DNA of 64,000 bases from an uncultured cyanobacterium (GTDB lineage Bacteria > Cyanobacteriota > Cyanobacteriia > Cyanobacteriales > CAWUOF01). The notes under the pieces were generated by a model that saw only the letters and a program-made list of their open reading frames with translations, made no database searches and was not told the origin of the DNA. Shown here piece after piece: positions 10,306 to 59,840 of the stretch. Position 1 is the stretch's first letter. Each line of letters starts with the position of its first letter. The stretch covers positions 1,536,001 to 1,600,000 of the forward strand of contig CAVUSO010000001.1 in NCBI GenBank assembly GCA_963744145.1. Direction: 5' to 3'. The position numbers were made by a program, and so were the translations under genes.

Positions 10306-10346
10306 GTATTTTATTGAAGTTTCACTAATAAATTCAAACCATCATA

Positions 10347-45750: not shown

Positions 45751-45778
45751 GTTTTTTTGGGGTGAAAAGATTATTATA

Positions 45779-46121: not shown

Positions 46122-46904
46122 ATGTACGATAACATTTGTAAATTTATCGCCGAAAACTTTAGTGATGATCTGGCGAGTTGGTTATTGGGAACTCCCGTAA
46201 AGTTAACCAAACTAAACCCAAGGGAGTTATCTTTAGAACCGATCCGGATGGACTCTCTGATTTTACAACAGTCAGAAGAGTTAGTTTTGCACACAGAATT
46301 TCAAACCGAGCCCGATCCAGCAATTCCCTTTCGGATGCTAGACTATCGTGTCCGAGGATATCGTTGCTTTCCTGACAAGGAAATGCGTCAGATCGTGGTG
46401 TACTTGCGACCCACCAATTCGGAATTAGTGAGACAAACCAGTTTTAGATTAAGTCGGACTCATCACGAGTTTGATGTAATTCGGCTCTGGGAACAACCAA
46501 CGGAGATATTTCTATCTGCACCAGGGTTATTACCATTTGCAGTGTTGAGTCGGACACCAGAACCAGAGTTAGTATTAAATCAGGTAGCGAGGAGCATTGA
46601 CCAAATTACCGATCGCAATGTTCAAAGTAATATCTGTGCATCCACAGCGATTTTAGCTGGATTAAGATTAAATGGAGAAGTAATTACTAGACTATTAAGG
46701 AGAGAGATTATGCGCGAATCAGTCATCTATCAAGAGATTTTGCAGGAAGGGTTACAGGGAGGAGTAGAGCAAGGGATAGAAATCGGCAAACAACAAGCAA
46801 AAGAGGGGATAGCTGTCAATTTGCTCAAAACTGGGATGACGGTGGAGCAAGTGGTTACTTTTACTGGGTTATCGGTAGAACAAGTACAGCATTTACAGCA
46901 GTAG
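46122..46904 (+). CDS. Rpn-family (recombination-promoting nuclease/putative transposase) protein, copy 1
   Basis: MYDNICKF, D..LHTEFQT PD-(D/E)XK-like core, MRESVIYQEI, C-terminal HTH-like tail. Confidence 0.88.
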   Translation: MYDNICKFIAENFSDDLASWLLGTPVKLTKLNPRELSLEPIRMDSLILQQSEELVLHTEFQTEPDPAIPFRMLDYRVRGYRCFPDKEMRQIVVYLRPTNSELVRQTSFRLSRTHHEFDVIRLWEQPTEIFLSAPGLLPFAVLSRTPEPELVLNQVARSIDQITDRNVQSNICASTAILAGLRLNGEVITRLLRREIMRESVIYQEILQEGLQGGVEQGIEIGKQQAKEGIAVNLLKTGMTVEQVVTFTGLSVEQVQHLQQ

Positions 46905-47023
46905 CTGAGTCAGTAAAAGTGATCGCATGAGTGAGACTTAAGCATGACTGTAAAAATTATCCGGGCTGCGATCGGTATTGTAGATGAATCCAGTTAATTT
47001 ACTGAGCGATCGCATCTGAAAAT

Positions 47024-47090
47024 TTAGCCCGGATATCCTTCTTGGAGATATTTTTCATGAGGGAATTAAGCTGAAAATAAGTCGGTTTTC
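47024..47090 (-). pseudogene. 3' remnant of the NB-ARC gene
   Basis: Nearly identical to 48778-48844 (..KPTYFQLN.LMKKYLQEGYPG*). Confidence 0.85.
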
Positions 47091-47189
47091 CATCATGTCT
47101 AAATAGGTGGGATTTTCTTCAATAAAGTAAATTAGCGGTGCTGTATCTAATGCTACAAGTTGTCCTTCTAACTGACTTATCCATTCCAT
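47055..47189 (-). pseudogene. Truncated PIN/VapC toxin
   Basis: MEWISQLEGQLVALDTAPLIYFIEENPTYL then runs out of frame into the NB-ARC remnant and stops at 44 aa. Confidence 0.75.
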
Positions 47190-47392
47190 GAAGCTCGTTC
47201 CTGATTAACATATTCTTGTGCATCAATCCCATTCCAAACTTCCTTACCCAATCCCCGCAATTCTGTAATACTATGTTGTGGCTTAGGCATAACCCTGTGA
47301 CGCACATCTGCTAACAGTTCAGCGATCAGTCGCAGTTGTTCATCCGGTGGGAGGCTGAGAGCTTGATTTAGGATCTCGTTATAATTAGACAT
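47177..47392 (-). CDS. Small antitoxin-like protein upstream of the PIN fragment
   Basis: LSLPPDEQLRLI..SITELRGLGKEVW..YVNQERASW; overlaps the PIN start. Confidence 0.72.
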   Translation of the reverse strand: MSNYNEILNQALSLPPDEQLRLIAELLADVRHRVMPKPQHSITELRGLGKEVWNGIDAQEYVNQERASWNG

Positions 47393-47465
47393 AGGTTCGC
47401 AAACGTGACTTTTTTAGTGATCATTTCTATTCTAGCAATAATTTTACCCTGATCTTATCCAAAAT

Positions 47466-47668
47466 GCGATCGCGTCGGTTGGAGAAGAAGGGGAGAAGGA
47501 TGGAATTGGTGGACAAAAGAATGGAGCAAAGACGATGACTTGATCTTCTCAGTCAATTCCCCTAAAGGTCATCTTCCAGGAGGAGCAGGTAGAAATCTAG
47601 TGGGATGGGATCATCGGAACGCCATTTTGGCTCGGATCAAGGTTTTTGCTAGTTATTTTTTCCCATAA
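47466..47668 (+). pseudogene. 3' fragment of the GUN4-domain gene, starting at a HIP1 site
   Basis: Near-identical to 53551-53753; a shorter copy lies at about 45909-46007. Confidence 0.85.
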
Positions 47669-47782
47669 CAATAATTTCTTTGAATAAGTGGAGAGCTTTT
47701 TTTGCATGAGGTGCTAAAATGATCATATTGGCTTTTCTCATGATCTTTTTAGGGATGGCGATCGCGTTGCTCTTAACAAAAA

Positions 47783-48658
47783 ATGTACGATAACATTTGT
47801 AAATTTATCGCCGAAAACTTTAGTGATGATCTGGCGAGTTGGTTATTGGGAATTCCCGTAAAGTTAACCAAACTAAATCCAATGGAGTTATCTTTAGAAC
47901 CGATCCGGATGGACTCTCTGATTTTACAACAGTCAGAAGAGTTAGTTTTGCACACAGAATTTCAAACCGAGCCAGATCCAGCAATTCCCTTTCGGATGCT
48001 AGATTATCGTGTCCGAGGATATCGTTGCTTTCCTAACAAGGAAATGCGTCAGATCGTGGTGTACTTGCGACCCACCAATTCGGAATTAGTGAGACAAACC
48101 AGTTTTAGATTAAGTCGGACTCATCACGAGTTTGATGTAATTCGGCTCTGGGAACAACCAACAGAGATATTCCTATCTGCACCAGGGTTATTACCGTTTG
48201 CAGTGTTGAGTCGGACACCAGAACCAGAGTTAGTATTAAATCAGGTAGCGAGGAGCATTGACCAAATTACCGATCGCAATGTTCAAAGTAATATCTGTGC
48301 ATCCACAGCGATTTTAGCTGGATTAAGATTAAATGGAGAAGTAATTACCAGACTACTAAGGAGAGAGATTATGCGCGAATCAGTCATCTATCAAGAGATT
48401 TTGCATGAAGGGTTACAGGGAGGAGTAGAGCAAGGGATAGAAATCGGTAAACAACAAGGGATAGAAATCGGCAAACAACAAGGGATAGAAATCGGCAAAC
48501 AACAAGGGATAGAAATCGGCAAACAACAAGGGTTACAACAGTTACAGGAAGCAAAAGAGGGAATAGCTATCAATTTGCTCAAAACTGGGATGACGGTGGA
48601 GCAAGTGGTTACTTTTACTGGGTTATCTGTAGAACAAGTACAGCATTTACAGCAGTAG
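47783..48658 (+). CDS. Rpn-family protein, copy 2 (four GIEIGKQQ repeats)
   Basis: Near-identical to copy 1 except for the 24-bp repeat expansion and a short adjacent insertion. Confidence 0.88.
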   Translation: MYDNICKFIAENFSDDLASWLLGIPVKLTKLNPMELSLEPIRMDSLILQQSEELVLHTEFQTEPDPAIPFRMLDYRVRGYRCFPNKEMRQIVVYLRPTNSELVRQTSFRLSRTHHEFDVIRLWEQPTEIFLSAPGLLPFAVLSRTPEPELVLNQVARSIDQITDRNVQSNICASTAILAGLRLNGEVITRLLRREIMRESVIYQEILHEGLQGGVEQGIEIGKQQGIEIGKQQGIEIGKQQGIEIGKQQGLQQLQEAKEGIAINLLKTGMTVEQVVTFTGLSVEQVQHLQQ

Positions 48659-48777
48659 CTGAGTCAGTAAAAGCGATCGCATAAGTGAGACCTAAGCATG
48701 ACTGTAAAAATTATCCGGGCTGCGATCGATATTGTAGATGAATCCAGTTAATTTATTGAGCGATCGCACCTGAAAAT

Positions 48778-50148
48778 TTAGCCCGGATACCCTTCTTGTA
48801 GATATTTTTTCATGAGGGGATTAAGCTGAAAATAAGTCGGTTTTACTTCAGATTTAGGATCGAGTAATAGCCGTCTTCCCAAAGATTGGATCGCATTTAA
48901 TAAGTCTGAAGTAGCTAACTTGTTTCTGCTGATAATTTGTGGTAATGTTATCGGTGTACTCTCCTGAGCTATATCGATTATAATTTCTTTTTCTGATGGT
49001 GATAATCTGTCAAATTGTCGTTTTAGTTGAACTTGTAAAGATTCACATAAAATTAAACTTTCACATTGGAGAAATTCAGAAACTTTACCTGCAAATAACT
49101 CTTGAATCATTAGAGCAGTAAACTCTAACCAGAGCGGATTTCCTTGGTAGATATTAATTAAAGTTTCCCAGGTTTCTTCATCTAATAAATTATGTTCCCT
49201 CAATATTTCTTTAGCTGCTATACCTAAATTACTTAATACTAAAGAGCGATCGGGACTATTTGATCGCTCTGATTTGGCAAAGTCTCTGATTTTTTCGGAA
49301 CTAATTAACATTAAGCAACTGTGATGAGAAGTTTTTGCTAATCGTCTAAAAAATAGAGGATAATTTTCTAAGGTTGGTTGATATTCTCCAGCAAATTTAC
49401 CGCTCCTAAAAAGCATCTGTACATCATCAAGAATAATCAAGCATCGATAGTTTCGCAGGTAATTGAGGAGTTGGGAAAGTTGCTTTTCAATATTGTGATT
49501 AATTTCTGGAGTTTCACAGAAGTTTTGGAGCAAGTTACTGAGGGTTGTTTCTAGGGTTGGAGAAAAACAAAGACTATAATAAATAATATAATCAAAATTA
49601 GTTTTTATTTGTTCAATTAAACGGAGACTCAGCGCGGTTTTACCAATTCCGCTCATTCCCAAAAGCTCGATCAGACGACAGCGATCGCTGATGATCCAAT
49701 GTTCTAGAGTAGCGAGTTCCGTGGTGCGATCGTAAAAGCTGAATATTTCTGGTGCATCACCTAAATTAATTTGGGGTTGTTTAGGGGTTTGTTGGGGATG
49801 TTGAGGAGATTTTGGCGATCGGGTCTTTTCTGAACAAATGTTAACATTATTAATTCCTCCAAAATTTTCACCAATAGATGAAATATGGTAAGTATTACCA
49901 TTTTCTACTATTGATCTAAAACTTGCTTTACTAACATCTTTTCCTAATCCATCCGATAGGATTTTCCACAATTGCGAACCGATATCCCTGACATAACTTT
50001 CGCTAGAATGGGTCATTTCAGCAATCTTTAGATAAGTCTCATCATGTAGAGTTCCTTGCAAAATAGCCTCTTGCAAATAGTCTAAGTGCTTACCTGTCTT
50101 AGTATAAACTAGCTCATCTGCCAATTTTAAGATTTCCTTAACATCCAT
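48778..50148 (-). CDS. HTH + NB-ARC (STAND) ATPase without C-terminal repeat domain, copy B
   Basis: N-terminal LQEAIL..TYLKIAE..SESYVRDIGSQLWKILS HTH-like segment; FYDRTTEL, Walker A GMSGIGKT, Walker B LIILDDV, GNPLWL. Confidence 0.88.
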   Translation of the reverse strand: MDVKEILKLADELVYTKTGKHLDYLQEAILQGTLHDETYLKIAEMTHSSESYVRDIGSQLWKILSDGLGKDVSKASFRSIVENGNTYHISSIGENFGGINNVNICSEKTRSPKSPQHPQQTPKQPQINLGDAPEIFSFYDRTTELATLEHWIISDRCRLIELLGMSGIGKTALSLRLIEQIKTNFDYIIYYSLCFSPTLETTLSNLLQNFCETPEINHNIEKQLSQLLNYLRNYRCLIILDDVQMLFRSGKFAGEYQPTLENYPLFFRRLAKTSHHSCLMLISSEKIRDFAKSERSNSPDRSLVLSNLGIAAKEILREHNLLDEETWETLINIYQGNPLWLEFTALMIQELFAGKVSEFLQCESLILCESLQVQLKRQFDRLSPSEKEIIIDIAQESTPITLPQIISRNKLATSDLLNAIQSLGRRLLLDPKSEVKPTYFQLNPLMKKYLQEGYPG

Positions 50149-50190
50149 AGGTCAACGATGGGATAAGCTTTCTGGCGTATTATATACGAT

Positions 50191-50265
50191 TTTTCCAACA
50201 TTTCCGACACTATTCTGACATTTCCAACTTGGTCACCCCAAAAAATACCCGATTTTTCCAACTTG
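50191..50265. promoter_or_regulatory. Short direct-repeat array in the divergent promoter (candidate operator)
   Basis: TTCCAACA, TTCCGACA, TTCTGACA, TTCCAACT at 9-11 bp spacing, plus TTCCAACT near 50256. Confidence 0.5.
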
Positions 50266-50335
50266 ATCTCTAAAATTACCAATACTAAACTTGAGTAGTT
50301 GATAAATGCTAAGTAAATCAAAATAAGAATGTGAT

Positions 50336-50560
50336 ATGGGATACAAGTCAGATCACGATTTTAGAACAGGTTTGTTCAAGCAAGTGACAAAAGGTATGGA
50401 AGATGACCAACCTCAAGAATTCCATCAATTTTTGCATGATTACTATTCAGAGCAGAAAGATAGTATGACTTACCAAGAACTTCTGAAAGCTGCAAAAGAG
50501 TTTATGGAAAATTATCCAGAATATACATGGAATGGTGATAGATGGGTTTTTCAAGAATAA
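50336..50560 (+). CDS. Small helical hypothetical protein (74 aa)
   Basis: ORF with FHQFLH..MTYQELLKAAKEF; first gene of the divergent run. Confidence 0.6.
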   Translation: MGYKSDHDFRTGLFKQVTKGMEDDQPQEFHQFLHDYYSEQKDSMTYQELLKAAKEFMENYPEYTWNGDRWVFQE

Positions 50561-50661
50561 GCATCTTGTTTGAATAAAATAGGTTGGCTTAACAAATTAG
50601 AGCAGCATATAATAGTCCACTAATTTTTTTGATAGTAACAATAGGAGATTAGAAGTAAACA

Positions 50662-50904
50662 ATGGCTAAACAAGCGGAAGCACTAATATCGAAATTTGGT
50701 GGCGATTACACTTATGAGGAGTTGCGCCTGATCAAAAAAGATTTTGAACTTTCTAAAATTCAATATGAATATCCAGGTAGTGTAAAAGGTAATAATTTTA
50801 CAGAACTAGAGGAACTGGCTAAAGATGGTGATCCAGATGCAAAAAAAGCAATTAAGCTTCTTCTCCAAACCAATAGACTAAATGAAAAATCAGGTCAAGA
50901 TTGA
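50662..50904 (+). CDS. Small hypothetical protein (80 aa)
   Basis: AGGAG upstream; EYPG..ELEELAKDGDPDAKKAIKLL. Confidence 0.68.
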   Translation: MAKQAEALISKFGGDYTYEELRLIKKDFELSKIQYEYPGSVKGNNFTELEELAKDGDPDAKKAIKLLLQTNRLNEKSGQD

Positions 50905-51017
50905 ATAGCCCGAGTAGATTATAGATAGTTTAGATGTTGTCTAAAATTTATTCTTGCTATTTAGAGTTTAGTTCATACTGAGTGGAGTTTCATTCTACAA
51001 GAATCAAGAGACTAATT

Positions 51018-51200
51018 ATGGCTAAAAAACACATGGGTCAAGTTAAAACGCCAACAGGTTCTGCTTACGATTATTATTGGGATGAAAATACTGGTGAAGT
51101 CTATGTTGGTAGCGAATCGGCTGGTAAAGCTTCATCCTCTGATGAAGCTTGGCGTAAAGCTAACTACTACGCAACTACGCTTAAACAATGGAAGGATTGA
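51018..51200 (+). CDS. Conserved 60-aa hypothetical protein, copy B
   Basis: 50/60 aa identical to 57057-57239 by manual comparison. Confidence 0.75.
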   Translation: MAKKHMGQVKTPTGSAYDYYWDENTGEVYVGSESAGKASSSDEAWRKANYYATTLKQWKD

Positions 51201-51206
51201 TTAAGA

Positions 51207-51431
51207 AAATTGTGATCGCTTCCTTCATAAGCTCTACTGTCTGGTGATATAAAAAATCAAGAAACGTTGAGTTTTTGTTGGGCGATCGCACTTGCTTTCC
51301 CAAAATCTCTACTAAATCTGACTGACAACGAACAATAATTCAAATCAAAATTGTGAATTGATCGCTCCATCAAATCTGATATCTAGTGATTGAAAAAATC
51401 AAAAGAGGTTGAGTTTTTGCTGGGCGATCGC
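51207..51431 (+). repeat. Two copies of a ~72-bp repeat ending in HIP1
   Basis: GATCGCT..GTGAT..AAAAAATCAA..GTTGAGTTTTTG.TGGGCGATCGC at about 51214-51289 and 51360-51431. Confidence 0.8.
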
Positions 51432-51481
51432 TTCACTAAATCAACAAGTTCTAACAAATTTTAATCCAAACGGAGTTAATT

Positions 51482-52306
51482 ATGAGTAGTATACTCGAAA
51501 ATATAAAAGAATGTTTAGATGACTCTAACAAATACAGAGAACGGGGAGACTTCTATTCTGAGCAAAAAAAATATAAGCAAGCTCTTGAAGAATATGCTAG
51601 GTCTCTGGAAAGATTTGAAATATATCTGCGGCTTACCGAAACAACTGCGGGAAAAACATATTATGAAGGAAACATTTGGCCTAATGTACTTTTTTCGATG
51701 GCTAGGATATTTATGAAGATTAAAACTTGCTATTTTGAGCAGGAAGATTATGCTAAAGCTGCATTTTTTATCAAAATCTTAAAAGAAATTGCCAAAAATT
51801 TAGATGGATTTAAAACTAGTTTTAATATAGAAATGTTAAACTCTTACGAAACATTAATTGAAGGATTAAAATATAGTGAAGCTTTAGTTAGTGTAAAAAA
51901 AGATATAAGTGATTTAAAGAATCAATCTAACAAAGTAGATGATTCTGATGAAATTTTTAAGAAAATTTGTTTAGAATTAGATAGATGTTGTTCTTATCAT
52001 ATATGTCCTTTACCTGCTAGAGGAATTGATAAGAAAGCTCCTTATGGTAGTAGTAGTAATTCTTGCTTCATCGCAACAGCAGCCTTCTCAACTTCTGTAC
52101 ATCCAGACTTAGACACATTCCGTAGTTTTCGAGATGAAAAACTTTTAACCAATTTGATTGGTAAGCAGCTAGTTAATCTCTACTATAAAATCGGACCCAC
52201 TATAGCTCAATATGTGGAAAAACAGCCAGGAATCAAAACTTTTCTAAAACAGCAACTAGGGCATTTAGCAAAGTGGATGCGTAGCCGAGGAGTTACAAGT
52301 AGGTAA
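51482..52306 (+). CDS. Helical/TPR-like protein with C-terminal CFI-box-CTERM domain, copy B
   Basis: SCFIATAAF..FRSFRDEKL..GKQLVNLYYKIGPTIA; GGAG RBS. Confidence 0.8.
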   Translation: MSSILENIKECLDDSNKYRERGDFYSEQKKYKQALEEYARSLERFEIYLRLTETTAGKTYYEGNIWPNVLFSMARIFMKIKTCYFEQEDYAKAAFFIKILKEIAKNLDGFKTSFNIEMLNSYETLIEGLKYSEALVSVKKDISDLKNQSNKVDDSDEIFKKICLELDRCCSYHICPLPARGIDKKAPYGSSSNSCFIATAAFSTSVHPDLDTFRSFRDEKLLTNLIGKQLVNLYYKIGPTIAQYVEKQPGIKTFLKQQLGHLAKWMRSRGVTSR

Positions 52307-52376
52307 TATAAATTTTTGCGATCGCCTATTTTTCAGACATGGTAATCAAAATAATTTAACTGAGGATGTAGCTAAT

Positions 52377-52560
52377 ATGGAAATTTTGGAAAATCGCCAA
52401 GAAATATGGTATGAAAAAGGTAAGGAGTTACGTTAGCAAGGTGAGTTTATAGGTGCGATCGCTGCATTCGATCAAGCTATAGCGATTAAAAACGACTTCC
52501 ATCAAGCTTGGTTTTTCAAGGGTATTGTGCTGAATTATTTAGAACGCTATGAGGATGCAA
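52377..52560 (+). pseudogene. Decayed 5' part of the TPR gene
   Basis: Matches 58467-58650; GAG>TAG at 52434-52436; homology ends near 52560. Confidence 0.88.
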
Positions 52561-52674
52561 CACACAAAGAGAGGCTTTCAAGAATCATCCTCAACCACCA
52601 CAATCAACTCAGTAGTGAAACATCAATCTGTCTATCAGTTTATAGGTAATTTCAACATATTGGAGATGTAAATA

Positions 52675-53753
52675 ATGCATTCTGTAAAAGGTGTAGATTA
52701 CACAAACTTACAACACTTGTTATCTGAAGGAAGATGGAAAGAAGCTGATTTAGAAACAGGTAAAAAAATGTGTGAAGTGATGGGGCGAGAAAAAGAAGGT
52801 AGTTTAACAGTCCAGGATATTAATAATTTTCCCAGTGAAGACTTACGCATAATTGATCAGCTTTGGGTAAAAGCTAGTAACGGTCATTTTGGTTTTTCAG
52901 TGCAGAAACGTATTTATGAAAGTCTGGGTGGAACCAAACGCTATTTAGGCGGAAATCAATATTATGATGAGAAAATCTGGAAAGCTTATGTTGCTCGCGT
53001 TGGCTGGTATTTAAGTGGACTTAATGGATGGATAGACTACAATGACCATACATTTCCAAGTAATGATTCATTCGACGGCCACCTACCAAGGGGAGGGTTT
53101 ACATTTACTTCCCAAGGGGGATACGCAGTCATTTCTTTAGGAGATTCTGGTTGGCACCAACTTCTTTTGCGAATGGACACAATTGATGGTAAGCAAACCA
53201 ATAAGCCTTTAGAAATAAAAGTTCTCGATTCAGTAAAAGGTGTAGATTACACAAATTTACAACGTTTATTGGCTGAAGTAAAATGGAAAGAAGCTGATAT
53301 AGAAACGCGCAAAAAAATGTTGGAAGTAATGGGGCGGCACAAAGTTTATAACGGTACTCTAAGACTCGAAGATATTAACAATTTTCCCTGCGAAATTTAC
53401 GCACAATTGATAAACTTTGGGTGAAATACAGTAACGGTCATTTTGGTTTTTCGGTGCAAAAGCATATCTATGAAGCTCTGGGTGGAACCTGGTCTTATAA
53501 TGAGAACACAGAACATCCAATATATAATGAGACTATCTGGACTACTTTTGGCGATCGCGTCGGTTGGAGAAGAAGGGGAGAAGGATGGAATTGGTGGACA
53601 AAAGAATGGATAAAAGACGATGACTTTATCTTCTCAGTCAATTCCCCTAAAGGTCATCTTCCAGGAGGAGCAGGTAGAAATATAGTGGGGTGGGATCATA
53701 GGATAGCCATTTTTGCTCGGATCAAGGTTTTTGCTAGTTATTTTTTCCCATAA
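52675..53753 (+). pseudogene. Tandem two-GUN4-domain gene with a 1-nt deletion frameshift near 53394
   Basis: Two GVDYTNLQ.LL...WKEAD.ET and SNGHFGFSVQK blocks; adding one G restores FPCEDLRTIDKLWVKYSNG. Confidence 0.82.
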
Positions 53754-53866
53754 CAATAATTTCTTTTAATAAGTGGAGAGCTTTTTTGCATGAGGTGCTA
53801 AAATGATCATATTGGCTTTTCTCATGATCTTTTTCAGAATGGCGATCGCGTTGCTCTTAACAAAAA

Positions 53867-54718
53867 ATGTACGATAACATTTGTAAATTTATCGCCGAAA
53901 ACTTTAGTGATGATCTGGCGAGTTGGTTATTGGGAACTCCCGTAAAGTTAACCAAACTAAACCCAAGGGAGTTATCTTTAGAACCGATCCGGATGGACTC
54001 TCTGATTTTACAACAGTCAGAAGAGTTAGTTTTGCACACAGAATTTCAAACCGAGCCAGATCCAACAATTCCCTTTCGGATGCTAGATTATCGTGTCCGA
54101 GGATATCGTTGCTTTCCTGACAAGGAAATGCGTCAGATCGTGGTGTACTTGCGACCCACCAATTCGGAATTAGTGAGACAAACCAGTTTTAGATTAAGTC
54201 GGACTCATCACGAGTTTGATGTAATTCGGCTCTGGGAACAACCAACAGAGATATTTCTATCTGCACCAGGGTTATTACCGTTTGCAGTGTTGAGTCGGAC
54301 ACCAGAACCAGAGTTAGTATTAAATCAGGTAGCGAGGAGCATTGACCAAATTACCGATCGCAATGTTCAAAGTAATATCTGTGCATCCACAGCGATTTTA
54401 GCTGGATTAAGATTAAATGGAGAAGTAATTACTAGACTATTAAGGAGAGAGATTATGCGTGAATCAGTCATCTATCAAGAGATTTTGCATGAAGGGTTAC
54501 AGGGAGGAGTAGAGCAAGGGATAGAAATCGGCAAACAACAAGGGATAGAAATCGGCAAACAACAAGGGATAGAAATCGGCAAACAACAAGGGTTACAACA
54601 GTTACAGGAAGCAAAAGAGGGAATAGCTATCAATTTGCTCAAAACTGGGATGACGGTGGAGCAAGTGGTTACTTTTACTGGGTTATCTGTAGAACAAGTA
54701 CAGCATTTACAGCAGTAG
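53867..54718 (+). CDS. Rpn-family protein, copy 3 (three GIEIGKQQ repeats)
   Basis: Near-identical to copies 1 and 2. Confidence 0.88.
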   Translation: MYDNICKFIAENFSDDLASWLLGTPVKLTKLNPRELSLEPIRMDSLILQQSEELVLHTEFQTEPDPTIPFRMLDYRVRGYRCFPDKEMRQIVVYLRPTNSELVRQTSFRLSRTHHEFDVIRLWEQPTEIFLSAPGLLPFAVLSRTPEPELVLNQVARSIDQITDRNVQSNICASTAILAGLRLNGEVITRLLRREIMRESVIYQEILHEGLQGGVEQGIEIGKQQGIEIGKQQGIEIGKQQGLQQLQEAKEGIAINLLKTGMTVEQVVTFTGLSVEQVQHLQQ

Positions 54719-54838
54719 CTGAGTCAGTAAAAGCGATCGCATGAGTGAGACCTAAGCATGACTGTTAAAAATTATCCGGGCTGCGATCGATATTGTAGAT
54801 GAATCCAGTTAATTTATTAAGCGATCGCATCTAAAAAC

Positions 54839-56209
54839 TTAGCCCGGATATCCTTCTTGTAGATATTTTTTCATAAGATAATTAAGCTGAAAATAAGTCT
54901 GTTTTCCTTCAGATTTAGAATCTAGTAATAGCCGTCTTCCCAAAGATTGGATCGCATTTAATAAGTCTGAAGTAGCTAACTTGTTGCTGTTGATAATTTG
55001 TGATAATGTTATCGGTGCATCCTCCTGAGCCAGATCAATTATAATTTCTTTTTCTGAGGGTGCTAGTCGCTCATATTGTCCTTTTAGTTGCACTTGCAAA
55101 GATTCGCATAAAATCAAACTTTCACATTGGAGAAATTCAGAAACTTTACCTGCAAATAACTCTTGAATCATTAGAGCAGTAAACTCTAACCAGAGCGGAT
55201 TTCCTTGGTAAGTATTAATTAAAGTTTCCCAGGTTTCTTCATCTAATAAATTATGTTCTCTCAATATTTCTTTAGCTGCTATACCTAAATTACTTAATAC
55301 TAAAGAGCGATCGGGACTATTTGATCGCTCTGATTTGGCAAAGTCTCTGATTTTTTCGGAACTAATTAACATTAAGCAACTGTGATGAGAAGTTTTTGCT
55401 AATCGTCTAAAAAATAGAGGATAATTTTCTAAGGTTGGTTGATATTCTCCAGCAAATTTACCGCTCCTAAAAAGCATCTGTACATCATCAAGAATAATCA
55501 AGCATCGATAGTTTCGCAGGTAATTAAGGAGTTGGGAAAGTTGCTTTTCAATATTGTGATTAATTTCTGGAGTTTCACAGAAGTTTTGGAGCAAGTTACT
55601 GAGGGTTGTTTCTAGGGTTGGAGAAAAACAAAGACTGTAGTAAATAACATAATCAAAGTTAGTTTTTATTTGTTCAATTAAACGGAGAGTTAGTGCAGTT
55701 TTACCAATTCCGCTCATTCCCAAAAGCTCGATCAGACGACAGCGATCGCTGATAATCCAATGTTCTAGAGTAGCGAGTTCCGTGGTGCGATCGTAAAAGC
55801 TGAATATTTCTGGTGCATCACCTAAGTTAATTTGGGGTTGTTTAGGGGTTTGTTGGGGAGGTTGAGGAGATTTTGGCGATCGGGATTTTTCTTGACAAAA
55901 ATTGACGTTATTAACTGTTCCATAATTTTGACCAATAGCTGATGAATAACTAAACCTTGCTCTTTCTAGGATCGCTCTAACATTACCTTTACTAACCTCT
56001 TCGTCTAATACCTCTGAAAGTATTTTCCATAATTCAGAAGCAGCAACTCTAACATAACCCTCAGTACAATCACGGTCTTGGGCTATCTTGGCATATTTCC
56101 GACCTTGGAGAGCTTCTTTTAAAATAGCCTCTTGCAGATCATCTAAGTGTTGTCCAGTTTTGGCAAAAACTCTTTCATCGGCGAATCTTAAAACTTCCTT
56201 AAGCTCCAT
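54839..56209 (-). CDS. HTH + NB-ARC (STAND) ATPase, copy C
   Basis: Same motifs as copy B; about 110 N-terminal aa diverged, remainder nearly identical. Confidence 0.88.
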   Translation of the reverse strand: MELKEVLRFADERVFAKTGQHLDDLQEAILKEALQGRKYAKIAQDRDCTEGYVRVAASELWKILSEVLDEEVSKGNVRAILERARFSYSSAIGQNYGTVNNVNFCQEKSRSPKSPQPPQQTPKQPQINLGDAPEIFSFYDRTTELATLEHWIISDRCRLIELLGMSGIGKTALTLRLIEQIKTNFDYVIYYSLCFSPTLETTLSNLLQNFCETPEINHNIEKQLSQLLNYLRNYRCLIILDDVQMLFRSGKFAGEYQPTLENYPLFFRRLAKTSHHSCLMLISSEKIRDFAKSERSNSPDRSLVLSNLGIAAKEILREHNLLDEETWETLINTYQGNPLWLEFTALMIQELFAGKVSEFLQCESLILCESLQVQLKGQYERLAPSEKEIIIDLAQEDAPITLSQIINSNKLATSDLLNAIQSLGRRLLLDSKSEGKQTYFQLNYLMKKYLQEGYPG

Positions 56210-56250
56210 AAGTCATGCTTTGGATAATTTTTACTAATATTACCAAAGTT

Positions 56251-56291
56251 TTTATAACATTTTACATAACATTATGTAACTTTTTCTAACA
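56251..56291. promoter_or_regulatory. Short direct-repeat array in the divergent promoter (candidate operator)
   Basis: TAAC at 56255, 56267, 56277 and 56287 in T-rich units. Confidence 0.5.
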
Positions 56292-56357
56292 GGCTCAAAC
56301 AACTAATCGTCCAAAGCAGCCATTGTATGATATTTGAGTAACTTCGGAGAAGCAAAA

Positions 56358-56624
56358 ATGCCTAGCCCAAGTGGTTGGAAATCTATCGGTAAAATTGATG
56401 GAGTTGATTGGGAAATCAAAGAAAAAAAGCACGGTCGATTTTTTCTTATGCGGTCTGTTGGAACTCAATATGACCCTAACGATCCTGATTATCCTCACAC
56501 TCTAGTTGAACTTGAAAATGGCCAATTAACTGGCTTTCAGCACAATTCAGATGATAGACACGGGATGAAGTTCGGAACACGGGATGTAATTATGGCGGCA
56601 GCAAGGATTGTTTTGAGCATTTAG
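56358..56624 (+). CDS. Small hypothetical protein (88 aa)
   Basis: GGAG RBS before ATG 56358; YPHT..FQHNSDDRH. Confidence 0.65.
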   Translation: MPSPSGWKSIGKIDGVDWEIKEKKHGRFFLMRSVGTQYDPNDPDYPHTLVELENGQLTGFQHNSDDRHGMKFGTRDVIMAAARIVLSI

Positions 56625-56726
56625 AGTCGTTGCATGATACTTGATTAAGATTTGCTGTTCGACTTTGCAGTGTTATAGCCGCTCTTGTTGTATATAATCT
56701 ACTTAGGTAAATGAGGCAAATATTCA

Positions 56727-56954
56727 ATGTCTAATAAACCATTTAAGGACGAAAGAAAACAAAATCGTGAATCAGCACAAAAGGATGTTGATAATGTCGT
56801 GAAAGAATTACATTTAACACCAGATGAAAGAGATAAATTACATGATGAATTAGGTGAAGATTATCTCGGATACCATGAAATTCTTGATAGAGCTAAATCT
56901 CTGTTTTCTAAACGTCATGTTAATTATAAAAATGGAGAAAAAGATCGCTGGTAG
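56727..56954 (+). CDS. Small helical hypothetical protein (75 aa)
   Basis: GAGG upstream; VVKELHLTPDERDKLHDEL..LGYHEILDRAKSLF. Confidence 0.68.
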   Translation: MSNKPFKDERKQNRESAQKDVDNVVKELHLTPDERDKLHDELGEDYLGYHEILDRAKSLFSKRHVNYKNGEKDRW

Positions 56955-57056
56955 TCAATGGTTATGCTGTAAAAATAAAGGGTTTATCAAACCGGCTAGT
57001 TAGAGTTTAGGTAATACAGAATTCAGTTGAATTTTATAAACATCAATGGAGTAGTT

Positions 57057-57239
57057 ATGGCTAGAAAAGCAATGGGTGAAGTTAAAACGCCAACAGGTTC
57101 AGTTTATACTTATTATTGGGACGAAGATACTGGTGAAGTCTATGTTGGTGGTGAATCGGCTGGTAAAGCCTCATCTGCTGATGAAGCTTTGCATAAAGCT
57201 AACTACTACGCAACTACGCTTAAACAATGGAAGGATTGA
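57057..57239 (+). CDS. Conserved 60-aa hypothetical protein, copy C
   Basis: GGAG RBS; paralog of 51018-51200. Confidence 0.75.
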   Translation: MARKAMGEVKTPTGSVYTYYWDEDTGEVYVGGESAGKASSADEALHKANYYATTLKQWKD

Positions 57240-57245
57240 TTAAGA

Positions 57246-57470
57246 AAATTGTGATTGATCGCTCTATCAAATCTGATATCTAGTGATTGAAAAAATCAAA
57301 AGAGGTTGAATTTTTGCTGGGCGATCGCACTTGCTTTCCCAAAATCCCTACTAAATCTGACTGACAACGAACAATAATTCAAATCAAAATTGTGAATTGA
57401 TCGCTCCATAAAATCTGATATCTAGTGATTGAAAAAATCAAAAGAGGTTGAGTTTTTGCTGGGCGATCGC
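57246..57470 (+). repeat. Two copies of the ~72-bp repeat ending in HIP1
   Basis: Copies at about 57257-57328 and 57399-57470. Confidence 0.82.
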
Positions 57471-57520
57471 TTTACTAAATCAACAAGTTCTAAGAAATTT
57501 TAATCCAAACGGAGTTAATT

Positions 57521-58396
57521 ATGGATGTTGCTACAGAAATACAACAATTATTGAACGCAAGTATCGGATGCAGAAACAGTGGAGACGTTTATTATGAGCA
57601 AAAAAAATATAAGCAATCTCTTGAAGAATATGCTAGAGCTCTGGAAAAATTTCAAGAATATCTAAACCTTTTTGGTGCTTTTGAAGAATCTGAGCGTCGA
57701 ATGTGTGGACATAGGACTGATTTCGATGTAGAAACCATAGGTAATGTAAAAATTAAAATTAATGTTCTTTTTCCAATGGCTGTTATATTTATTTCGATTG
57801 AAAATTGCTATATTCAACTGCGAGATTATGCTAAAGGTACGTTTTGTCTTAAAATTTTAAGACAAATTATCCAGGGGTTGGATAGAGTTAAAAATAGCCT
57901 ACATCCAGAGATATTAAAAGCCTACATAGAATATACTGAAATGTTAGATTCTTATGACCGATGTTTAAATTCAATGAAAATACTAACACTAACAGACAAA
58001 AGTGATTCTGATAATCAATCTAACGAAATTGACGATTCTGATGAGACTTTTAAAAAAATTTGTTTAGAATTAGACAAATGCTGTTCGTATCGTATATGTC
58101 CTTTGCCTGCTAGAGGAATTGATAAGAAAGCTCCTTATGATGGTAGTAATTCTTGCTTCATTGCAACAGCAGCTTACTCAACTTCTACACATCCAGACTT
58201 AGACACTTTCCGCAGTTTCCGAGATGAAAAACTTTTAACTAATTCTGTTGGTAAGCAGGTAGTTAATATCTACTATAAAATCGGTCCTACAATCGCTCAA
58301 TATGTGGACAAACAGCCAGAAATTAAAACTTTTCTAAAACAGCAACTAGGGTATTTAGCAAAGTGGATGCGTAGTCGAGGAGTTACAAGTAGGTAA
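57521..58396 (+). CDS. Helical/TPR-like protein with C-terminal CFI-box-CTERM domain, copy C
   Basis: SCFIATAAY..FRSFRDEKL; shares EQKKYKQ.LEEYAR and the C-terminal third with copy B. Confidence 0.8.
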   Translation: MDVATEIQQLLNASIGCRNSGDVYYEQKKYKQSLEEYARALEKFQEYLNLFGAFEESERRMCGHRTDFDVETIGNVKIKINVLFPMAVIFISIENCYIQLRDYAKGTFCLKILRQIIQGLDRVKNSLHPEILKAYIEYTEMLDSYDRCLNSMKILTLTDKSDSDNQSNEIDDSDETFKKICLELDKCCSYRICPLPARGIDKKAPYDGSNSCFIATAAYSTSTHPDLDTFRSFRDEKLLTNSVGKQVVNIYYKIGPTIAQYVDKQPEIKTFLKQQLGYLAKWMRSRGVTSR

Positions 58397-58466
58397 TATA
58401 AATTTTGGCGATCGCCTATTTTTCAGACATGATAATCAAAATAATTTAACTTAGGATGGAGCCAAT

Positions 58467-59840
58467 ATGGAAAATTTGGAAAATAGCGAAGAAGTATGGT
58501 ATGAAAAAGGTAAGGAGTTACGTGAGCAAGGTGAGTTTATAGGTGCGATCGCTGCATTCGATCAAGCTATAGCGATTAAAAACGACTTCCATCAGGCTTG
58601 GTTTTTCAAGGGTGTTGTGCTGTATGATTTAGAACGCTATGAGGATGCAATTGCCGTATTCGATCAAGCTATAGCAATTAAAAACGACTTCGATAAGGCT
58701 TGGTTTTTCAAGGGTGTTGTGCTGAATGCTTTAGAACGCTATGAGGATGCAATTGCCGTATTCGATCACCTTATAGCAATTGAATATAACTTCTGCGATC
58801 TAGCTTGGAATAATAAGGGGCTTGCACTATGTGAATTAAAACGCTATATGGACGCAATCATAGCATTTGACCAAGCTATAGCAATTAAAAATAACTATCA
58901 TGAAGCTTGGGATTCCAAGGGTTATGCACTGTCTAAGTTAGAACGTTATGAAGATGCGATCGCTGCATTTAATCAAGCTATAGCGATTAAACACGATTTC
59001 TTCGTAGCTTGGTGGCACAAGGGTGTTGTACTGTATGATTTAGAACGCTATGAGGATGCGATCGCTGCATTCGATCAAGCTATAGCGATTGATAATGATC
59101 AATCTGCTTGGTCTCTCAAAGGTCATGCACTGACGAGTTTAGGAAATGAGCTGTGGAAATTAGAACGACATAAGGACGCGATAATTGCATTGGATCAAGC
59201 TATAGCCATTAACCATGATAACGGACTAGCTTGGTGCTACAAGGGCTGTGTTTTGAATAACTTAAAACGGTATGAAGATGCGATCATTGCATTTGACCAA
59301 GCTATAGCGATTGACCATAATTGCCACGGTGCTTGGTTATTCAAGGGCGCTACACTGAATAACTTAGAACGCTATGAGGATGCGATCACCGCATTTGATC
59401 AAGCTATAGCGATTAAACCTGACTTACATCAAGCTTGGTTTGACAAGGGTTTTACACTAAATGAATTAGAACGGTATAACGATGCGATCATAGCATTAGA
59501 CCAAGGTATAGCAATTAAATACGACGACGAAAACGCTTGGTTTAATAAAGGTTTTGCGCTGTATAACTTAAACCAGCATGAAGATGCGATCGTTGCACTA
59601 GACCAAGCTATAAAGATTAATCACAATAATGAAAGCGCTTGTTTTTATAAGGGTCGTGCACTGAGTGATTTAGGACGCGATGAGGATGCGATTATGGCAT
59701 TTGACCAGGCTATATCAATTAAGCACGACTGCCAACAAGCTTGGTTTCAGAAGAGTAAATCGTTGCGTAAATTAAAACGCGATGAGGATGCCAATGCAGC
59801 CCTTAGCAAGTTCTTTAATTTTGTTGTGGAGAAATCATAA
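58467..59840 (+). CDS. Tetratricopeptide-repeat protein (about 13 repeats)
   Basis: Repeated AW..KG..L..LERYEDAIAAFDQAIAI. Confidence 0.95.
   Translation: MENLENSEEVWYEKGKELREQGEFIGAIAAFDQAIAIKNDFHQAWFFKGVVLYDLERYEDAIAVFDQAIAIKNDFDKAWFFKGVVLNALERYEDAIAVFDHLIAIEYNFCDLAWNNKGLALCELKRYMDAIIAFDQAIAIKNNYHEAWDSKGYALSKLERYEDAIAAFNQAIAIKHDFFVAWWHKGVVLYDLERYEDAIAAFDQAIAIDNDQSAWSLKGHALTSLGNELWKLERHKDAIIALDQAIAINHDNGLAWCYKGCVLNNLKRYEDAIIAFDQAIAIDHNCHGAWLFKGATLNNLERYEDAITAFDQAIAIKPDLHQAWFDKGFTLNELERYNDAIIALDQGIAIKYDDENAWFNKGFALYNLNQHEDAIVALDQAIKINHNNESACFYKGRALSDLGRDEDAIMAFDQAISIKHDCQQAWFQKSKSLRKLKRDEDANAALSKFFNFVVEKS

Follow-up and report, generated by a model that had tools for sequence, protein, structure and literature searches.

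Two NB-ARC paralogs lie close together in the window, i.e. the whole 64-kb stretch of DNA that was analysed, and their N-terminal parts and promoter repeats differ together. This raises the question whether the helix-turn-helix (HTH) domain of each protein recognises a repeat array in the promoter of its own gene. The genes and their HTH domains are located as follows:

48778-50148, minus strand: NB-ARC paralog A gene, open reading frame of 456 aa (Pfam NB-ARC, 39.9 bits, cut-off 23.5)
54839-56209, minus strand: NB-ARC paralog B gene, open reading frame of 456 aa
49894-50148, minus strand: coding region of the copy A HTH domain (aa 1-85; AF2 model and PF26355.1)
49966-50007, minus strand: predicted recognition helix of copy A (aa 48-61), SSESYVRDIGSQLW
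55955-56209, minus strand: coding region of the copy B HTH domain (PF26355.1)
56027-56068, minus strand: predicted recognition helix of copy B, CTEGYVRVAASELW

The two proteins are identical at 384 of 456 residues. As an earlier note on this DNA had claimed, the first ~110 residues diverged strongly (55 of 109 identical over aa 1-109, or 50.5%), and the helices that it quoted, SESYVRDIGSQ and TEGYVRVAASE, were both found in the window proteins. Its description of the proteins as near-identical from RSPKSPQ onward holds to about aa 375 (262 of 266 residues over aa 110-375; 98.5%), but not beyond (67 of 81 over aa 376-456; 82.7%). According to Pfam and AF2 models, paralog A consists of an HTH_VMAP-M9 domain (aa 1-85), a P/Q-rich disordered linker (~aa 88-140), a P-loop NBD, a helical domain and a winged helix. 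A profile search recognised no sensor domain in the NB-ARC protein, and the closest solved relatives of the NOD are plant NB-ARC immune receptors (CNLs). NCBIfam gave weak matches to Orc1/Cdc6 and IstB (E 0.006-0.03).

The identification of the N-terminal domain as an HTH was borne out by a recognised HTH family, PF26355.1 (HTH_VMAP-M9), with precomputed matches on both window proteins. The AF2 model of aa 1-88 was confident and contained a helix-turn-helix; in copy A, pLDDT was 88-97 across aa 1-80, with helices at 24-34, 39-45 and 50-68. Foldseek searches with the HTH domain returned no match at E ≤ 0.001, and the best PDB folds were sigma-E region 4 on -35 DNA, GerE, DosR and FixJ (target-normalised TM 0.58-0.67). 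A local Pfam copy gave only Sigma70_r4_2 in copy B (E 0.0076) and nothing in copy A. The domain is Pfam HTH_VMAP-M9, with a predicted sigma-region-4/LuxR-like fold.

Repeat arrays in the two promoters

Upstream of the two genes we distinguished the following elements:

50179-50184, minus strand: -10-like box TATAAT of copy A, 30 nt before the ATG (aligned family box)
50193-50228, minus strand: putative proximal operator array of copy A, four units
50247-50262, minus strand: distal pair of copy A, GTTGGAAAAATCGGGT, 25 nt upstream of the proximal array
56237-56242, minus strand: -10-like box TAATAT of copy B, 27 nt before the ATG
56254-56290, minus strand: putative operator array of copy B, four units

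The copy A repeats are TTCCAAC (50193), TTCCGAC (50202), TTCTGAC (50213) and TTCCAAC (50222), at spacings of 9, 11 and 9. Read on the sense strand (consensus GTYRGAA), the units GTTGGAA, GTCAGAA, GTCGGAA and GTTGGAA start 44, 35, 24 and 15 nt before the -10 box. Between the distal pair and a TAAAAT at 50271-50276 on the cargo strand there are 8 nt. In copy B, TAAC cores at 56255, 56267, 56277 and 56287 (spacing 12, 10 and 10) belong to GTTAN units at 56254-56258, 56266-56270, 56276-56280 and 56286-56290; on the sense strand GTTAG, GTTAC, GTTAT and GTTAT start 48, 38, 28 and 16 nt before the -10 box, which in most B-type relatives is TATAAT instead of TAATAT. The earlier claim of four repeats per gene at the same upstream position was correct, as both arrays lie 45-81 bp from the ATG. 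In both window copies, 6-7 nt separate the end of the 3'-most clear unit from the -10 box.

We compared both strands of the 64 kb with 200 dinucleotide shuffles, with motif and spacing fixed post hoc. Each array was the sole such cluster on both strands of the window, and 0 of 200 shuffles gave array A or array B (spacing 10-12 for B); with loose spacing, the array B pattern occurred in 11 of 200. Tandem Repeats Finder called no repeat at either promoter. An unbiased 7-mer repeat statistic was reached in 1 of 100 shuffles for array A and in 15 of 100 for array B. Hence, array B taken alone is not significant; what makes it real is that its units are conserved in B-type loci, in 19 others by eye, of which 10 were aligned with copy B. 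These loci keep the units and spacings of copy B (10, 10, 12), while the spacers drift. Judged from the window alone the repeats are weak, and it is the comparison across the family that makes them convincing.

Mosaic history and divergent cargo operons

Positions 47466-52560 pair with 53551-58650 as a segmental duplication, and Rpn genes flank both window copies. At the DNA level, most of the Rpn gene and of the NB-ARC core match at 93-100%; the final ~90 codons of the NB-ARC gene match at 81-95% and its first ~110 codons at 55-73%. The stretches 50150-50970 and 56215-57010 are not alignable, and beyond them identity is high again. Between copies A and B, dS is 1.16 in the HTH part (dN/dS ~0.27) and 0.097 in the NB-ARC core. 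Moreover, the copy B N-terminus shares 87-91% of its residues with B-type proteins of the Microcoleus group, whereas the cores of those proteins are only 55-58% identical to that of copy B. The NB-ARC cores have been homogenised between the paralogs, and the HTH with its array has been retained as an old module (dS 1.16, versus a rounded 0.10). Recombination or gene conversion that stops within the linker would even out the cores, and HTH, 5'UTR and array would be inherited as one module of ~0.5 kb.

On the opposite strand, each NB-ARC gene faces a divergent operon:

50336-52306, plus strand: divergent cargo operon of copy A, open reading frames
50336-50560 and 50662-50904, plus strand: micro-ORFs of the copy A cargo, open reading frames
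50982-51200, plus strand: conserved 70-aa ORF of the copy A cargo
51482-52306, plus strand: TPR/CFI-box-CTERM protein of the copy A cargo
56322-56331, plus strand: ATTGTATGAT, candidate -10 (TATGAT) of the copy B cargo promoter
56334-59840, plus strand: divergent cargo operon of copy B, open reading frames
56334-56624 and 56727-56954, plus strand: micro-ORFs of the copy B cargo
57027-57239, plus strand: conserved 70-aa ORF of the copy B cargo
57521-58396, plus strand: CFI-box-CTERM protein of the copy B cargo
58467-59840, plus strand: TPR protein of the copy B cargo

The copy A cargo operon has a match to NF041770 (E 6e-21). The earlier note had proposed that HTH, operator and micro-ORFs move as one block. 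This held for HTH and array, as the dS values indicate, and not for the micro-ORFs, which were ruled out because their homologs pair with other HTH types: homologs of copy A's two micro-ORFs adjoin B-type HTH genes (L025, L042), and a homolog of copy B's first adjoins an A-type gene (L049). Homologs of the copy A cargo likewise occur in other loci whatever the HTH type. The micro-ORFs belong to a variable, divergently transcribed cargo operon.

A divergent upstream neighbour was present in 72 of 79 rows of the family alignment described below. The distance from array to cargo start varied (IQR 69-218 nt), which leaves control of the cargo by the array weakly grounded. The ATTGTATGAT motif begins 32 nt past copy B's 5'-most array unit and was kept in 11 of 11 aligned B-type upstream regions, with any cargo; it may be a promoter element of the cargo operon. 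Conflict-type cargo in the neighbourhood comprised GUN4, a double-GTPase/NACHT-like P-loop protein with WD40, an AIG1 GTPase, an IetA-like AAA protein and E1-Ubl-E2-JAB. Neither a vWA nor a MoxR gene was seen in the examined part of the window or in the loci.

Arrays and helix types across the family

We examined 77 homologous loci from other cyanobacteria together with the two window copies. Repeats were seen upstream of homologs throughout the family, and all nine helix groups among the 79 rows had sense-strand repeats ending at a -10-like box. Of 78 rows, 64 had three or more type-specific units. The repeat statistic exceeded every one of 100 shuffles in 29 of 78 rows; in 45 of 78, no more than 5 of the 100 shuffles reached it. 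Family promoters carry 9-12-bp direct-repeat arrays in a fixed register to a conserved -10 box. In 59 of 64 rows, the 3'-most unit begins either 6-7 or 14-16 nt upstream of this box. The box itself, as aligned, reads TATAAT in 51 of 78 rows, and in 57 of 78 its distance from the ATG is 27-28 nt. The earlier description of the repeats as about one helical turn apart fits only roughly, as the majority of spacings between units measure 9 or 10 bp. Types A, G, D, C, E and others also have a distal pair, set off by a gap of ~25 or 34 nt. With a strict pattern, own-type motifs clustered at the own promoter in 38 of 80 rows, and nowhere else in the 64-kb window or in any locus. The promoters had no -35 match at the array position.

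The predicted co-variation of HTH helix and upstream repeats was found across genomes, the core sequence tracking helix type and not the NB-ARC core: R-D helices go with GTCGG, R-N with GTCAG/T, R-V with GTTAT, R-Y with GTAGG and K-N with GTACG. For helix D55 against a GTCGG-dominated array, the counts were 27, 5, 0 and 42. Residue 55 was the most informative of 100 columns on array class (1.20 of 1.90 bits); the recognition-helix columns as a group were not significantly more informative than the remainder of the domain (p = 0.125). R-N helices had two separate origins, in N-terminal clades each supported at 99 and both with GTCAG/T arrays, and the D-to-N change at residue 55 coincided twice with GTCGG to GTCAG/T. 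Furthermore, the distal pair varied in step with the proximal array and had the same core. Slippage inside one array cannot explain this joint change.

Helix type changed 25 times on the NB-ARC core tree, where the types are interleaved, versus 11 times on the N-terminal tree. Near-identical cores went with different arrays in four sets (WA/WB, L012/L043/L054, L014/L017/L039 and L006/L038). The NB-ARC core is therefore not the determinant of array type. Much of the correlation would arise from co-inheritance alone, because HTH and array lie within ~200 bp and travel together in any recombination event. Only three contrasts with branch support were available for a phylogenetically independent test (p ≥ 0.25). 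The GTCGG core is common to types A, G and F despite their differing helices, and arrays were mixed in WA, L001, L002, L009, L015 and L016. Paralogs within one genome shared a helix group in 5 of 34 pairs, against an expected fraction of 0.137, and hence showed no avoidance.

Proposed mechanism and alternatives

Beyond the anatomy, conservation, co-variation and mosaic history observed here, the best reading, to which we give an even chance, is that these proteins are self-addressed STAND (NB-ARC) transcription switches that bind their own operator arrays, like MalT/AfsR. The HTH would recognise a type-specific 5-7-bp core in the promoter of its own gene, repeated 4-9 times on one strand with a spacing of mostly 9-10 bp and sometimes 11-14 bp. 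The array occupies the -35 position in a fixed register up to the -10 box, and the distal pair or the 5'-most units adjoin the putative promoter of the divergent cargo operon, whose content is highly variable. If the NB-ARC part oligomerises in an ATP-dependent manner, several HTHs, each on a disordered linker of ~50 residues, would be aligned along the array and bind it cooperatively, like a switch. Activation, with positive feedback and cargo induction, seems more likely than repression. Units abutting the -10 box in many loci would suit a repressor equally. A published Trichodesmium TSS table contains no TSS near the homolog.

Negative autoregulation is a less probable reading, though the foremost of the alternatives. 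The array would then be an operator through which the HTH keeps a conflict-system NTPase low, and output would be protein-protein signalling to the cargo instead of transcription. Antitoxins and defence-island regulators behave likewise; in 27 of 64 rows a unit begins just 6-7 nt upstream of the -10 box and so abuts it; the array spans the whole -13 to -60 region and would occlude RNA polymerase; its position is tied to the promoter of the regulator itself rather than to the cargo; and the lack of a detected TSS for the Trichodesmium homolog in culture fits a silent gene. However, the missing -35 match at the array resembles activator-dependent promoters, the 3'-most clear unit of the window copies stops 6-7 nt short of the box, and SARP/AfsR sites, as described in parts of PMC10936776, cover the same spacer and -35 region and yet activate. 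It is rather improbable that linkage alone is at work, with promoter and first 110 codons forming an old haplotype and the repeats being bound by another factor or representing phased A-tract/UP-like slippage DNA. HTH and array are indeed contiguous, every unit has an A-rich tail, and the few independent contrasts, the TRF and 7-mer results for copy B alone and the frequency of shared helix groups among same-genome paralogs agree with linkage. Against it, at least nine helix groups each keep several copies of one core matched by the distal pair, the register to the -10 box is fixed and motif clusters occur nowhere else, the D-to-N change twice accompanies the change in core, B-type cores are conserved while spacers drift, and a period of 9 bp does not keep the phase needed for intrinsic curvature.

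We regard it as very unlikely that the N-terminal domain diversifies under an arms race, as an adaptor between proteins or an effector-associated module, and has no relation to the promoter repeats. Bacterial NLR-like N-termini are often adaptors, according to parts of Kibby et al. (bioRxiv 2022.07.19.500537), and the cargo is typical of conflict systems; yet the types are discrete and strongly conserved across genera, the copy B N-terminus far better than the core, dN/dS in the HTH part is ~0.27, and the domain is classified and folds in the AF2 model as an HTH. Least probable of all, and only remotely likely, are mobile-element iterons or recombination sites bound by an Orc/Cdc6-like initiator ATPase. 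The weak Orc1/Cdc6 and IstB matches, the Rpn nuclease genes beside both copies and the duplicated segment fit such elements. In contrast, every array stops at a -10 box 27-28 nt upstream of the start codon, the flanking genes show no conservation (Rpn in only five other loci), each chromosome has 2-4 copies with different cargo, and the closest solved relatives are plant immune receptors.

The same pairing in 77 related genes of other cyanobacteria suggests a family of self-addressed genetic switches, for which precedents exist. In lambdoid phage immunity regions, HTH specificity and repeated operators co-vary and are swapped as a cassette between near-identical genomes. Here, the cassette is the head of a chromosomal STAND ATPase, the repeats are direct instead of palindromic, and no phage context was seen. 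In MalT box arrays the boxes are short and asymmetric, and the promoters lack a good -35; MalT is not known to occupy its own promoter in such an arrangement. MalT has its HTH at the C-terminus, the reverse domain order, and a SUPR sensor, whereas the NOD studied here scores as NB-ARC/AP-ATPase and is closest to plant CNLs. Shared with MalT/LAL proteins such as E. coli MalT is a STAND ATPase with inducer- and ATP-dependent multimerisation and cooperative binding of MalT boxes by a LuxR-type HTH (described in parts of PMC4381067).

AfsR and other large SARPs of Streptomyces likewise place a DNA-binding domain at the N-terminus, ahead of a STAND NOD. The sites that they bind are one-strand direct repeats over the -35 and spacer, with the 3' repeat at a fixed short distance of 8 bp from the -10, and activate (parts of PMC10936776). 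They use an OmpR-type wHTH with BTAD instead of a sigma-r4/LuxR-like HTH_VMAP-M9, and two units at 11 bp instead of 4-9 at mostly 9-10 bp. The present family lacks a TPR sensor, has its sites in the regulator's own promoter and comprises many cyanobacterial paralogs with different cores. Cyanobacterial 'SigR'-type r4_2*NB-ARC*TPR_MalT proteins similarly fuse a sigma-region-4-like HTH to NB-ARC; the relevant parts of a domain-architecture survey that records them (PMC11119718) cover architecture only, without DNA sites, co-variation or the TPR-less 456-aa form. VMAP (vWA-MoxR-associated proteins) and bacterial NLR-like systems are alike in their conflict-type cargo and in the HTH family named after VMAP. 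The relevant parts of the eLife 2020 VMAP/conflict-system paper (PMC7159879) describe neither the HTH-NB-ARC family nor promoter repeats, and DNA-binding N-termini of bacterial NLR-like proteins have been proposed to 'activate a transcriptional response' (in part of bioRxiv 2022.07.19.500537).

Two NB-ARC genes and their promoter repeats

Both NB-ARC genes of the window lie inside a segmental duplication (47466-52560 vs 53551-58650), and each has direct repeats, a putative operator that we call the array, in its own promoter. The genes, here copy A and copy B, and their repeats are located as follows:

48778-50148, minus strand: copy A NB-ARC gene, an ORF of 456 aa
54839-56209, minus strand: copy B NB-ARC gene, an ORF of 456 aa
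50193-50228, minus strand: copy A proximal array, sense-strand units GTTGGAA, GTCAGAA, GTCGGAA, GTTGGAA
50247-50262, minus strand: copy A distal pair, repeat units upstream of the proximal array
56254-56290, minus strand: copy B array, sense-strand units GTTAG, GTTAC, GTTAT, GTTAT

Each duplicated unit comprises the 3' end of a GUN4-like gene, an Rpn-family gene with the NB-ARC gene convergent to it, and a divergent series of small ORFs with a TPR/CFI-box-CTERM protein after them. The two NB-ARC proteins are identical at 384 of 456 residues. The strong difference that the earlier note had seen in their N-terminal ~110 aa was borne out (55/109 identical over aa 1-109), and the near-identity that it had described for the rest of the protein holds for aa 110-375 (262/266) but not for aa 376-456 (67/81). 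DNA identity between the copies is 93-100% for the greater part of the Rpn gene and NB-ARC core, 81-95% in the last ~90 NB-ARC codons and 55-73% in the first ~110. Neither the intergenic region nor the first two small ORFs show similarity, which is back at the third small ORF. The synonymous distance dS is 1.16 for the HTH part, 0.097 for aa 113-375 and 0.18 for the putative winged helix. The difference between 1.16 and 0.097 implies that the N-terminal module is old and that the core was recently homogenised. The pair also illustrates how paralogs can retain distinct addresses while gene conversion homogenises the remaining protein. The divergence junction falls inside the stretch of aa 88-140, which is disordered in the AlphaFold model.

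The putative winged-helix end, aa 376-456 (48778-49050 and 54839-55111), forms a second divergence island with 82.7% amino acid identity, dN of 0.093 and dS of 0.18, and its flanks are highly similar between the copies. Across the family, divergence of this end does not track HTH type.

The repeats were found where the earlier note had placed them upstream of each gene. Each array is the sole such cluster in the 64 kb, and none of 200 shuffles made one, for a pattern that was set post hoc. An unbiased 7-mer repeat statistic was reached in 1/100 shuffles for copy A and in 15/100 for copy B, and Tandem Repeats Finder reported no repeats in either window promoter. A sigma-70 consensus scan gave no -35/-10 pair at the conserved boxes. 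An Rfam scan of 46000-60000 gave no match, and hence the intergenic conservation is not explained by a known RNA element.

Promoter architecture and recognition helices across the family

The protein search yielded 2293 relatives at E<=1e-5 among 7999 candidates scored, and 2687 cluster representatives carry this HTH. Named relatives are nearly all from filamentous Oscillatoriales-type cyanobacteria, with a length of ~456 aa and frequently several per genome. A genome scan confirmed 380 loci, and we drew the promoter comparison from the best 80 of them. Three of the 80 loci lacked a usable N-terminus and were dropped; the remaining 77 and the two window copies make up 79 rows. Promoter statistics were calculated on 78 rows, leaving out one with only 82 nt of upstream sequence.

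The earlier note had made its proposal depend on repeats upstream of homologs, and these are present in all nine groups of predicted recognition helix, as sense-strand direct repeats in the 170 nt before the ATG that reach a -10-like box. This box reads TATAAT in 51/78 rows, and in 57/78 its end lies 27-28 nt before the ATG. Unit spacing is mostly 9 bp (96 cases) or 10 bp (57 cases), with some spacings of 11, 12 and 14 bp, and its autocorrelation peaks at 9-10 bp. A gap of ~25 or 34 bp separates the distal pair from the proximal array. Among the 64 rows with at least three units, 59 have a 3'-most unit that begins 6-7 or 14-16 nt ahead of the box. The repeat statistic lay above all 100 shuffles in 29/78 rows, and was reached by at most 5 of 100 shuffles in 45/78. 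The C-type loci of Okeania and Dapis have the same architecture ~130 nt farther upstream. Clusters of a locus's own motif type occur solely at its own promoter, and none was found elsewhere in any locus or in the window.

Predicted recognition helices and the repeat units of the arrays found with them
R-D-[IV]-G-S, R-D-V-A: GTCGGAAAT
K-D-V-A-S: GTCGGAAAAA, 10-bp period
R-N-V-A-S, R-N-V-G-S: GTCAGAAAT / GTCATAAAAT
Y-V-R-V-A-A-S (19 loci and copy B): GTTAT / GTTAG
R-S/G-V-A-S: GTCAGATAA
S-E-S-H-V-K-N-V-G-H: GTACGAAAA
S-E-T-H-V-R-Y-I-G-A: GTAGGAWWT

The repeat core, i.e. the 5-7-bp sequence of the unit, follows the predicted helix type across genomes, as the earlier note had expected, but the phylogenetically independent comparison of D at residue 55 with GTCGG arrays had just 3 contrasts to draw on, all from supported branches; no contrast ran the wrong way, and p was at least 0.25. 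Helix residue D55 set against arrays dominated by GTCGG gave counts of 27, 5, 0 and 42. Of 100 alignment columns, that of residue 55 tells most about array class: it has an entropy of just 1.72 and yields 1.20 of the 1.90 bits. R-N helices are found in two N-terminal clades that are separate and have support of 99 each, and both clades have GTCAG/T arrays. GTCGG is common to three helix groups, and several arrays are mixed.

Helix types are interleaved on the tree of the NB-ARC core, with 25 changes vs 11 on the N-terminal tree (75 rows). Different arrays accompany near-identical NB-ARC cores in copies A and B of the window, and among the homologous loci in L012 vs L043 and L054, L014 and L017 vs L039, and L006 vs L038. 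The N-terminus of copy B is 87-91% identical to those of B-type proteins, whose cores are just 55-58% identical to that of copy B. Judged from these sequence comparisons, the NB-ARC core is not the determinant of array type.

Shared descent offers another explanation for the match between helix and array: both lie within ~200 bp of each other, so that they are co-inherited whatever their function. Enrichment for informative positions in the recognition-helix columns as a group had p = 0.125, and same-genome paralogs gave no signal of avoiding the same helix type (5/34 pairs vs 0.137 expected, among the best 80 of 380 loci). Given the co-inheritance and these test outcomes, the argument for function rests on four other points. 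Several copies of one repeat core are kept per lineage; the same core recurs in the separate distal pair; the register to the -10 is fixed; and unit cores are conserved while the spacers drift. The case for putative sequence-specific protein binding to the repeats is in this sense a comparative one.

Domain composition and the proposed switch

PF00931 (NB-ARC) matches both window proteins, at 39.9 and 40.6 bits against a Pfam cut-off of 23.5, and the family profile matches the plant CNLs Sr35, ZAR1 and MLA13 (E 8e-8 to 2e-6). In 37 sequences, G164, G167, I168, G169, K170 and T171, L237, I238, D241 and D242, and Q335, G336, N337, P338 and L339 are invariant; these blocks correspond to the Walker A GxxGxGK[ST], Walker B hhhhDD and GxP ('GLPL'-like) motifs. 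After the NBD, the full-length AF2 model has helices at 308-361 and then three helices and a beta-hairpin at 369-453, as candidates for the helical and winged-helix domains, with a mean pLDDT of 64.8 and a pTM of 0.35, a quality insufficient for a fold search. Domain search found no repeat sensor (TPR, WD40, LRR) in the 456-aa window proteins and no recognisable sensor domain in the NB-ARC proteins; the TPR or WD40 proteins in some cargo operons, i.e. those divergently transcribed from the NB-ARC gene, are separate genes. Our search found no longer proteins with this N-terminus, which is weak evidence.

Precomputed annotation assigns PF26355.1 to the N-terminus of both window proteins (P0001, P0002) and to all 120 listed homologs. 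This entry is named HTH_VMAP-M9, 'vWA-MoxR associated protein N-terminal HTH domain'. Literature searches with the accession, the names and the 17-nt array string found no paper, and passages of the paper introducing VMAP systems (PMC7159879) do not describe the HTH-NB-ARC family or the promoter repeats. The AF2 model of the N-terminus is confident over aa 1-88 (pLDDT >88 over aa 1-80) and places a helix-turn-helix at 39-45 and 50-68. Its top Foldseek matches are sigma-E region 4 on -35 DNA, GerE, DosR and FixJ, at a best E of 0.6 and none at E<=0.001, and the N-terminus profile had no match below E 0.44 among PDB sequences. Sigma70_r4_2 matches copy B below threshold (E 0.0076; 16.3 bits vs a cut-off of 25.7), and the window proteins fall outside the sigma-70 family, since domain search found no sigma-70 region 2 in them. 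They likewise fall outside the MalT/LAL class, as their HTH is N-terminal and domain search gave no GerE or TPR_MalT match, and outside the SARP (AfsR-type) class, as neither protein has a Trans_reg_C or BTAD match.

The known STAND regulators AfsR/SARP and MalT can serve as a model for the logic of the family. Passages of PMC4381067 describe multimerisation of MalT followed by cooperative binding to MalT boxes. For AfsR/SARP, passages of PMC10936776 describe an N-terminal DNA-binding domain combined with a NOD, sites that are direct repeats with the 3' copy 8 bp from the -10, covering the -35 and the spacer, and activation by 'sigma adaptation'. Excerpts of a survey of cyanobacterial sigma-like proteins list the architecture 'sigma r4_2 NB-ARC TPR_MalT' (PMC11119718), and in excerpts of bioRxiv 2022.07.19.500537 the DNA-binding N-termini of bacterial NLR-like proteins are proposed to set off transcriptional responses. 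STAND transcription factors on direct repeats are already known; the family-wide co-variation of helix and operator and the modular exchange are new here.

By analogy with MalT and AfsR, we propose that oligomerisation of the NB-ARC domain would align several HTHs, on a flexible linker, along the array at the gene's own promoter. HTHs aligned in this way would form a cooperative switch, with activation more probable than repression, and the switch may also act on the divergent cargo promoter. The Trichodesmium primary transcriptome (Table S1 of PMC4143802; 6080 TSS) has no TSS at the homolog promoter at 33018xx-33021xx and is uninformative on this promoter.

Some proteins with this HTH domain, namely P0122 (541 aa), P0150 (391 aa) and P0241 (223 aa), are made up of 3-6 tandem copies of it with a different recognition helix in each, which is compatible with several such HTHs side by side on DNA.

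Divergent cargo and neighbouring features

A divergent neighbour is present in 72/79 rows, with highly variable content. The cargo types found include:

small ORFs, a conserved 70-aa protein and a CFI-box-CTERM/TPR protein
GUN4-domain proteins
a double-GTPase/NACHT-like P-loop protein with a WD40 protein
an AIG1-type GTPase
an IetA-like AAA protein
an E1, ubiquitin-like, E2 and JAB set
a dynamin-like protein with an HTH_3 domain
an MscS channel

Many toxin-antitoxin-like genes and genes for Uma2 nucleases surround the loci, and the arrangement resembles a regulator coupled to interchangeable conflict or defence cargo. In two Okeania loci (L064, 667-3361; L071, 1516-about 3400, minus strand), a bacterial ubiquitination-like set of ThiF-type E1, ubiquitin-like protein, E2 and JAB peptidase is encoded by the operon divergent from the D-type NB-ARC gene.

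The first two small ORFs of the cargo, the micro-ORFs, had been thought to move with HTH and operator as one specificity block. This part of the proposal had to be abandoned: both micro-ORFs of copy A have 68-83%-identical homologs beside B-type genes (L025, L042), and the first one of copy B has a homolog beside an A-type gene (L049).

Array and cargo start are a variable distance apart (IQR 69-218 nt), so that control of the cargo is an inference. B-type loci have a conserved ATTGTATGAT, a candidate cargo-strand -10, ~35 nt beyond the array irrespective of cargo, and several A, G, D and other loci have a TAGATT/TATATT-like cargo-strand hexamer ~8-11 nt beyond the distal pair, as seen by eye and missed by the automatic count. 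Both elements hint at cargo control.

Upstream of the arrays lies a conserved TACAAT-containing motif, AGTACAAYGATGA in A-type loci (L003, L012, L049) and ATCATACAAYG in all B-type loci, which may serve as a second promoter directed at the NB-ARC gene or as a cargo-promoter -10 on the other strand. B-type loci of the Microcoleus group (L011, L019, L025, L029, L036, L037, L044) also contain, ~200-250 nt upstream of the NB-ARC ATG and to the cargo side of their GTTAT array, a degenerate element of A type consisting of GTCGGAACTGTCGGGAC, a spacer and decayed units. Either a module replacement left this element behind, or an A-type paralog uses it as a site in trans.

STAND/NLR-like ATPases are plentiful in multicellular cyanobacteria, and to our knowledge an output is known for almost none of them. 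The HTH-NB-ARC family has a directly testable output, in the form of a defined putative DNA site before each gene. If the pairing of HTH and array is functional, it would make readable the code by which a sigma-region-4-like HTH recognises DNA, supply orthogonal regulator/operator parts as a set, and open a route to the signals that switch on neighbouring defence-type operons. A wider reading, which we regard as rather unlikely, is that filamentous cyanobacteria hold a natural library of mutually distinct HTH/operator pairs on NLR-like NB-ARC ATPases, each a portable bidirectional promoter cassette that switches variable immune or conflict cargo, with a near one-residue code at position 55. 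The code would then read D for GTCGG, N for GTCAG/T, V for GTTAT and Y for GTAGG, the switch would be ATP-driven, cooperative and transcriptional, and the family would parallel, in bacteria, NLR transcription regulators such as CIITA. Under the same supposition, the A-type remnants found upstream of B-type genes would be a hint that paralogs cross-regulate one another.

The duplicated unit occurs a third time at 45909-47095. This copy contains a GUN4-like 3' end and an Rpn gene (46122-46904) and terminates in a ~70-nt NB-ARC relic that derives from the 3' end of the gene (...KPTYFQLNSLMK, out of frame thereafter), with toxin-antitoxin-like small ORFs following at 47055-47392. A third NB-ARC copy has evidently been lost. 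The Rpn-family genes at 46122-46904, 47783-48658 and 53867-54718 contain 1, 4 and 3 copies, respectively, of a 24-nt tandem repeat (GIEIGKQQ). The cargo operon of copy B closes with a TPR gene (58467-59840) composed of 102-nt repeats. Only ~110 nt of copy A (52451-52560) are similar to it, and GUN4-domain genes (52675-53753) stand in its place. Self-comparison of the window also revealed a duplication of 1.2 kb with 74% identity (18943-20138 vs 21015-22210) and an inverted match of 130 nt (10344-10472 vs 45774-45905).
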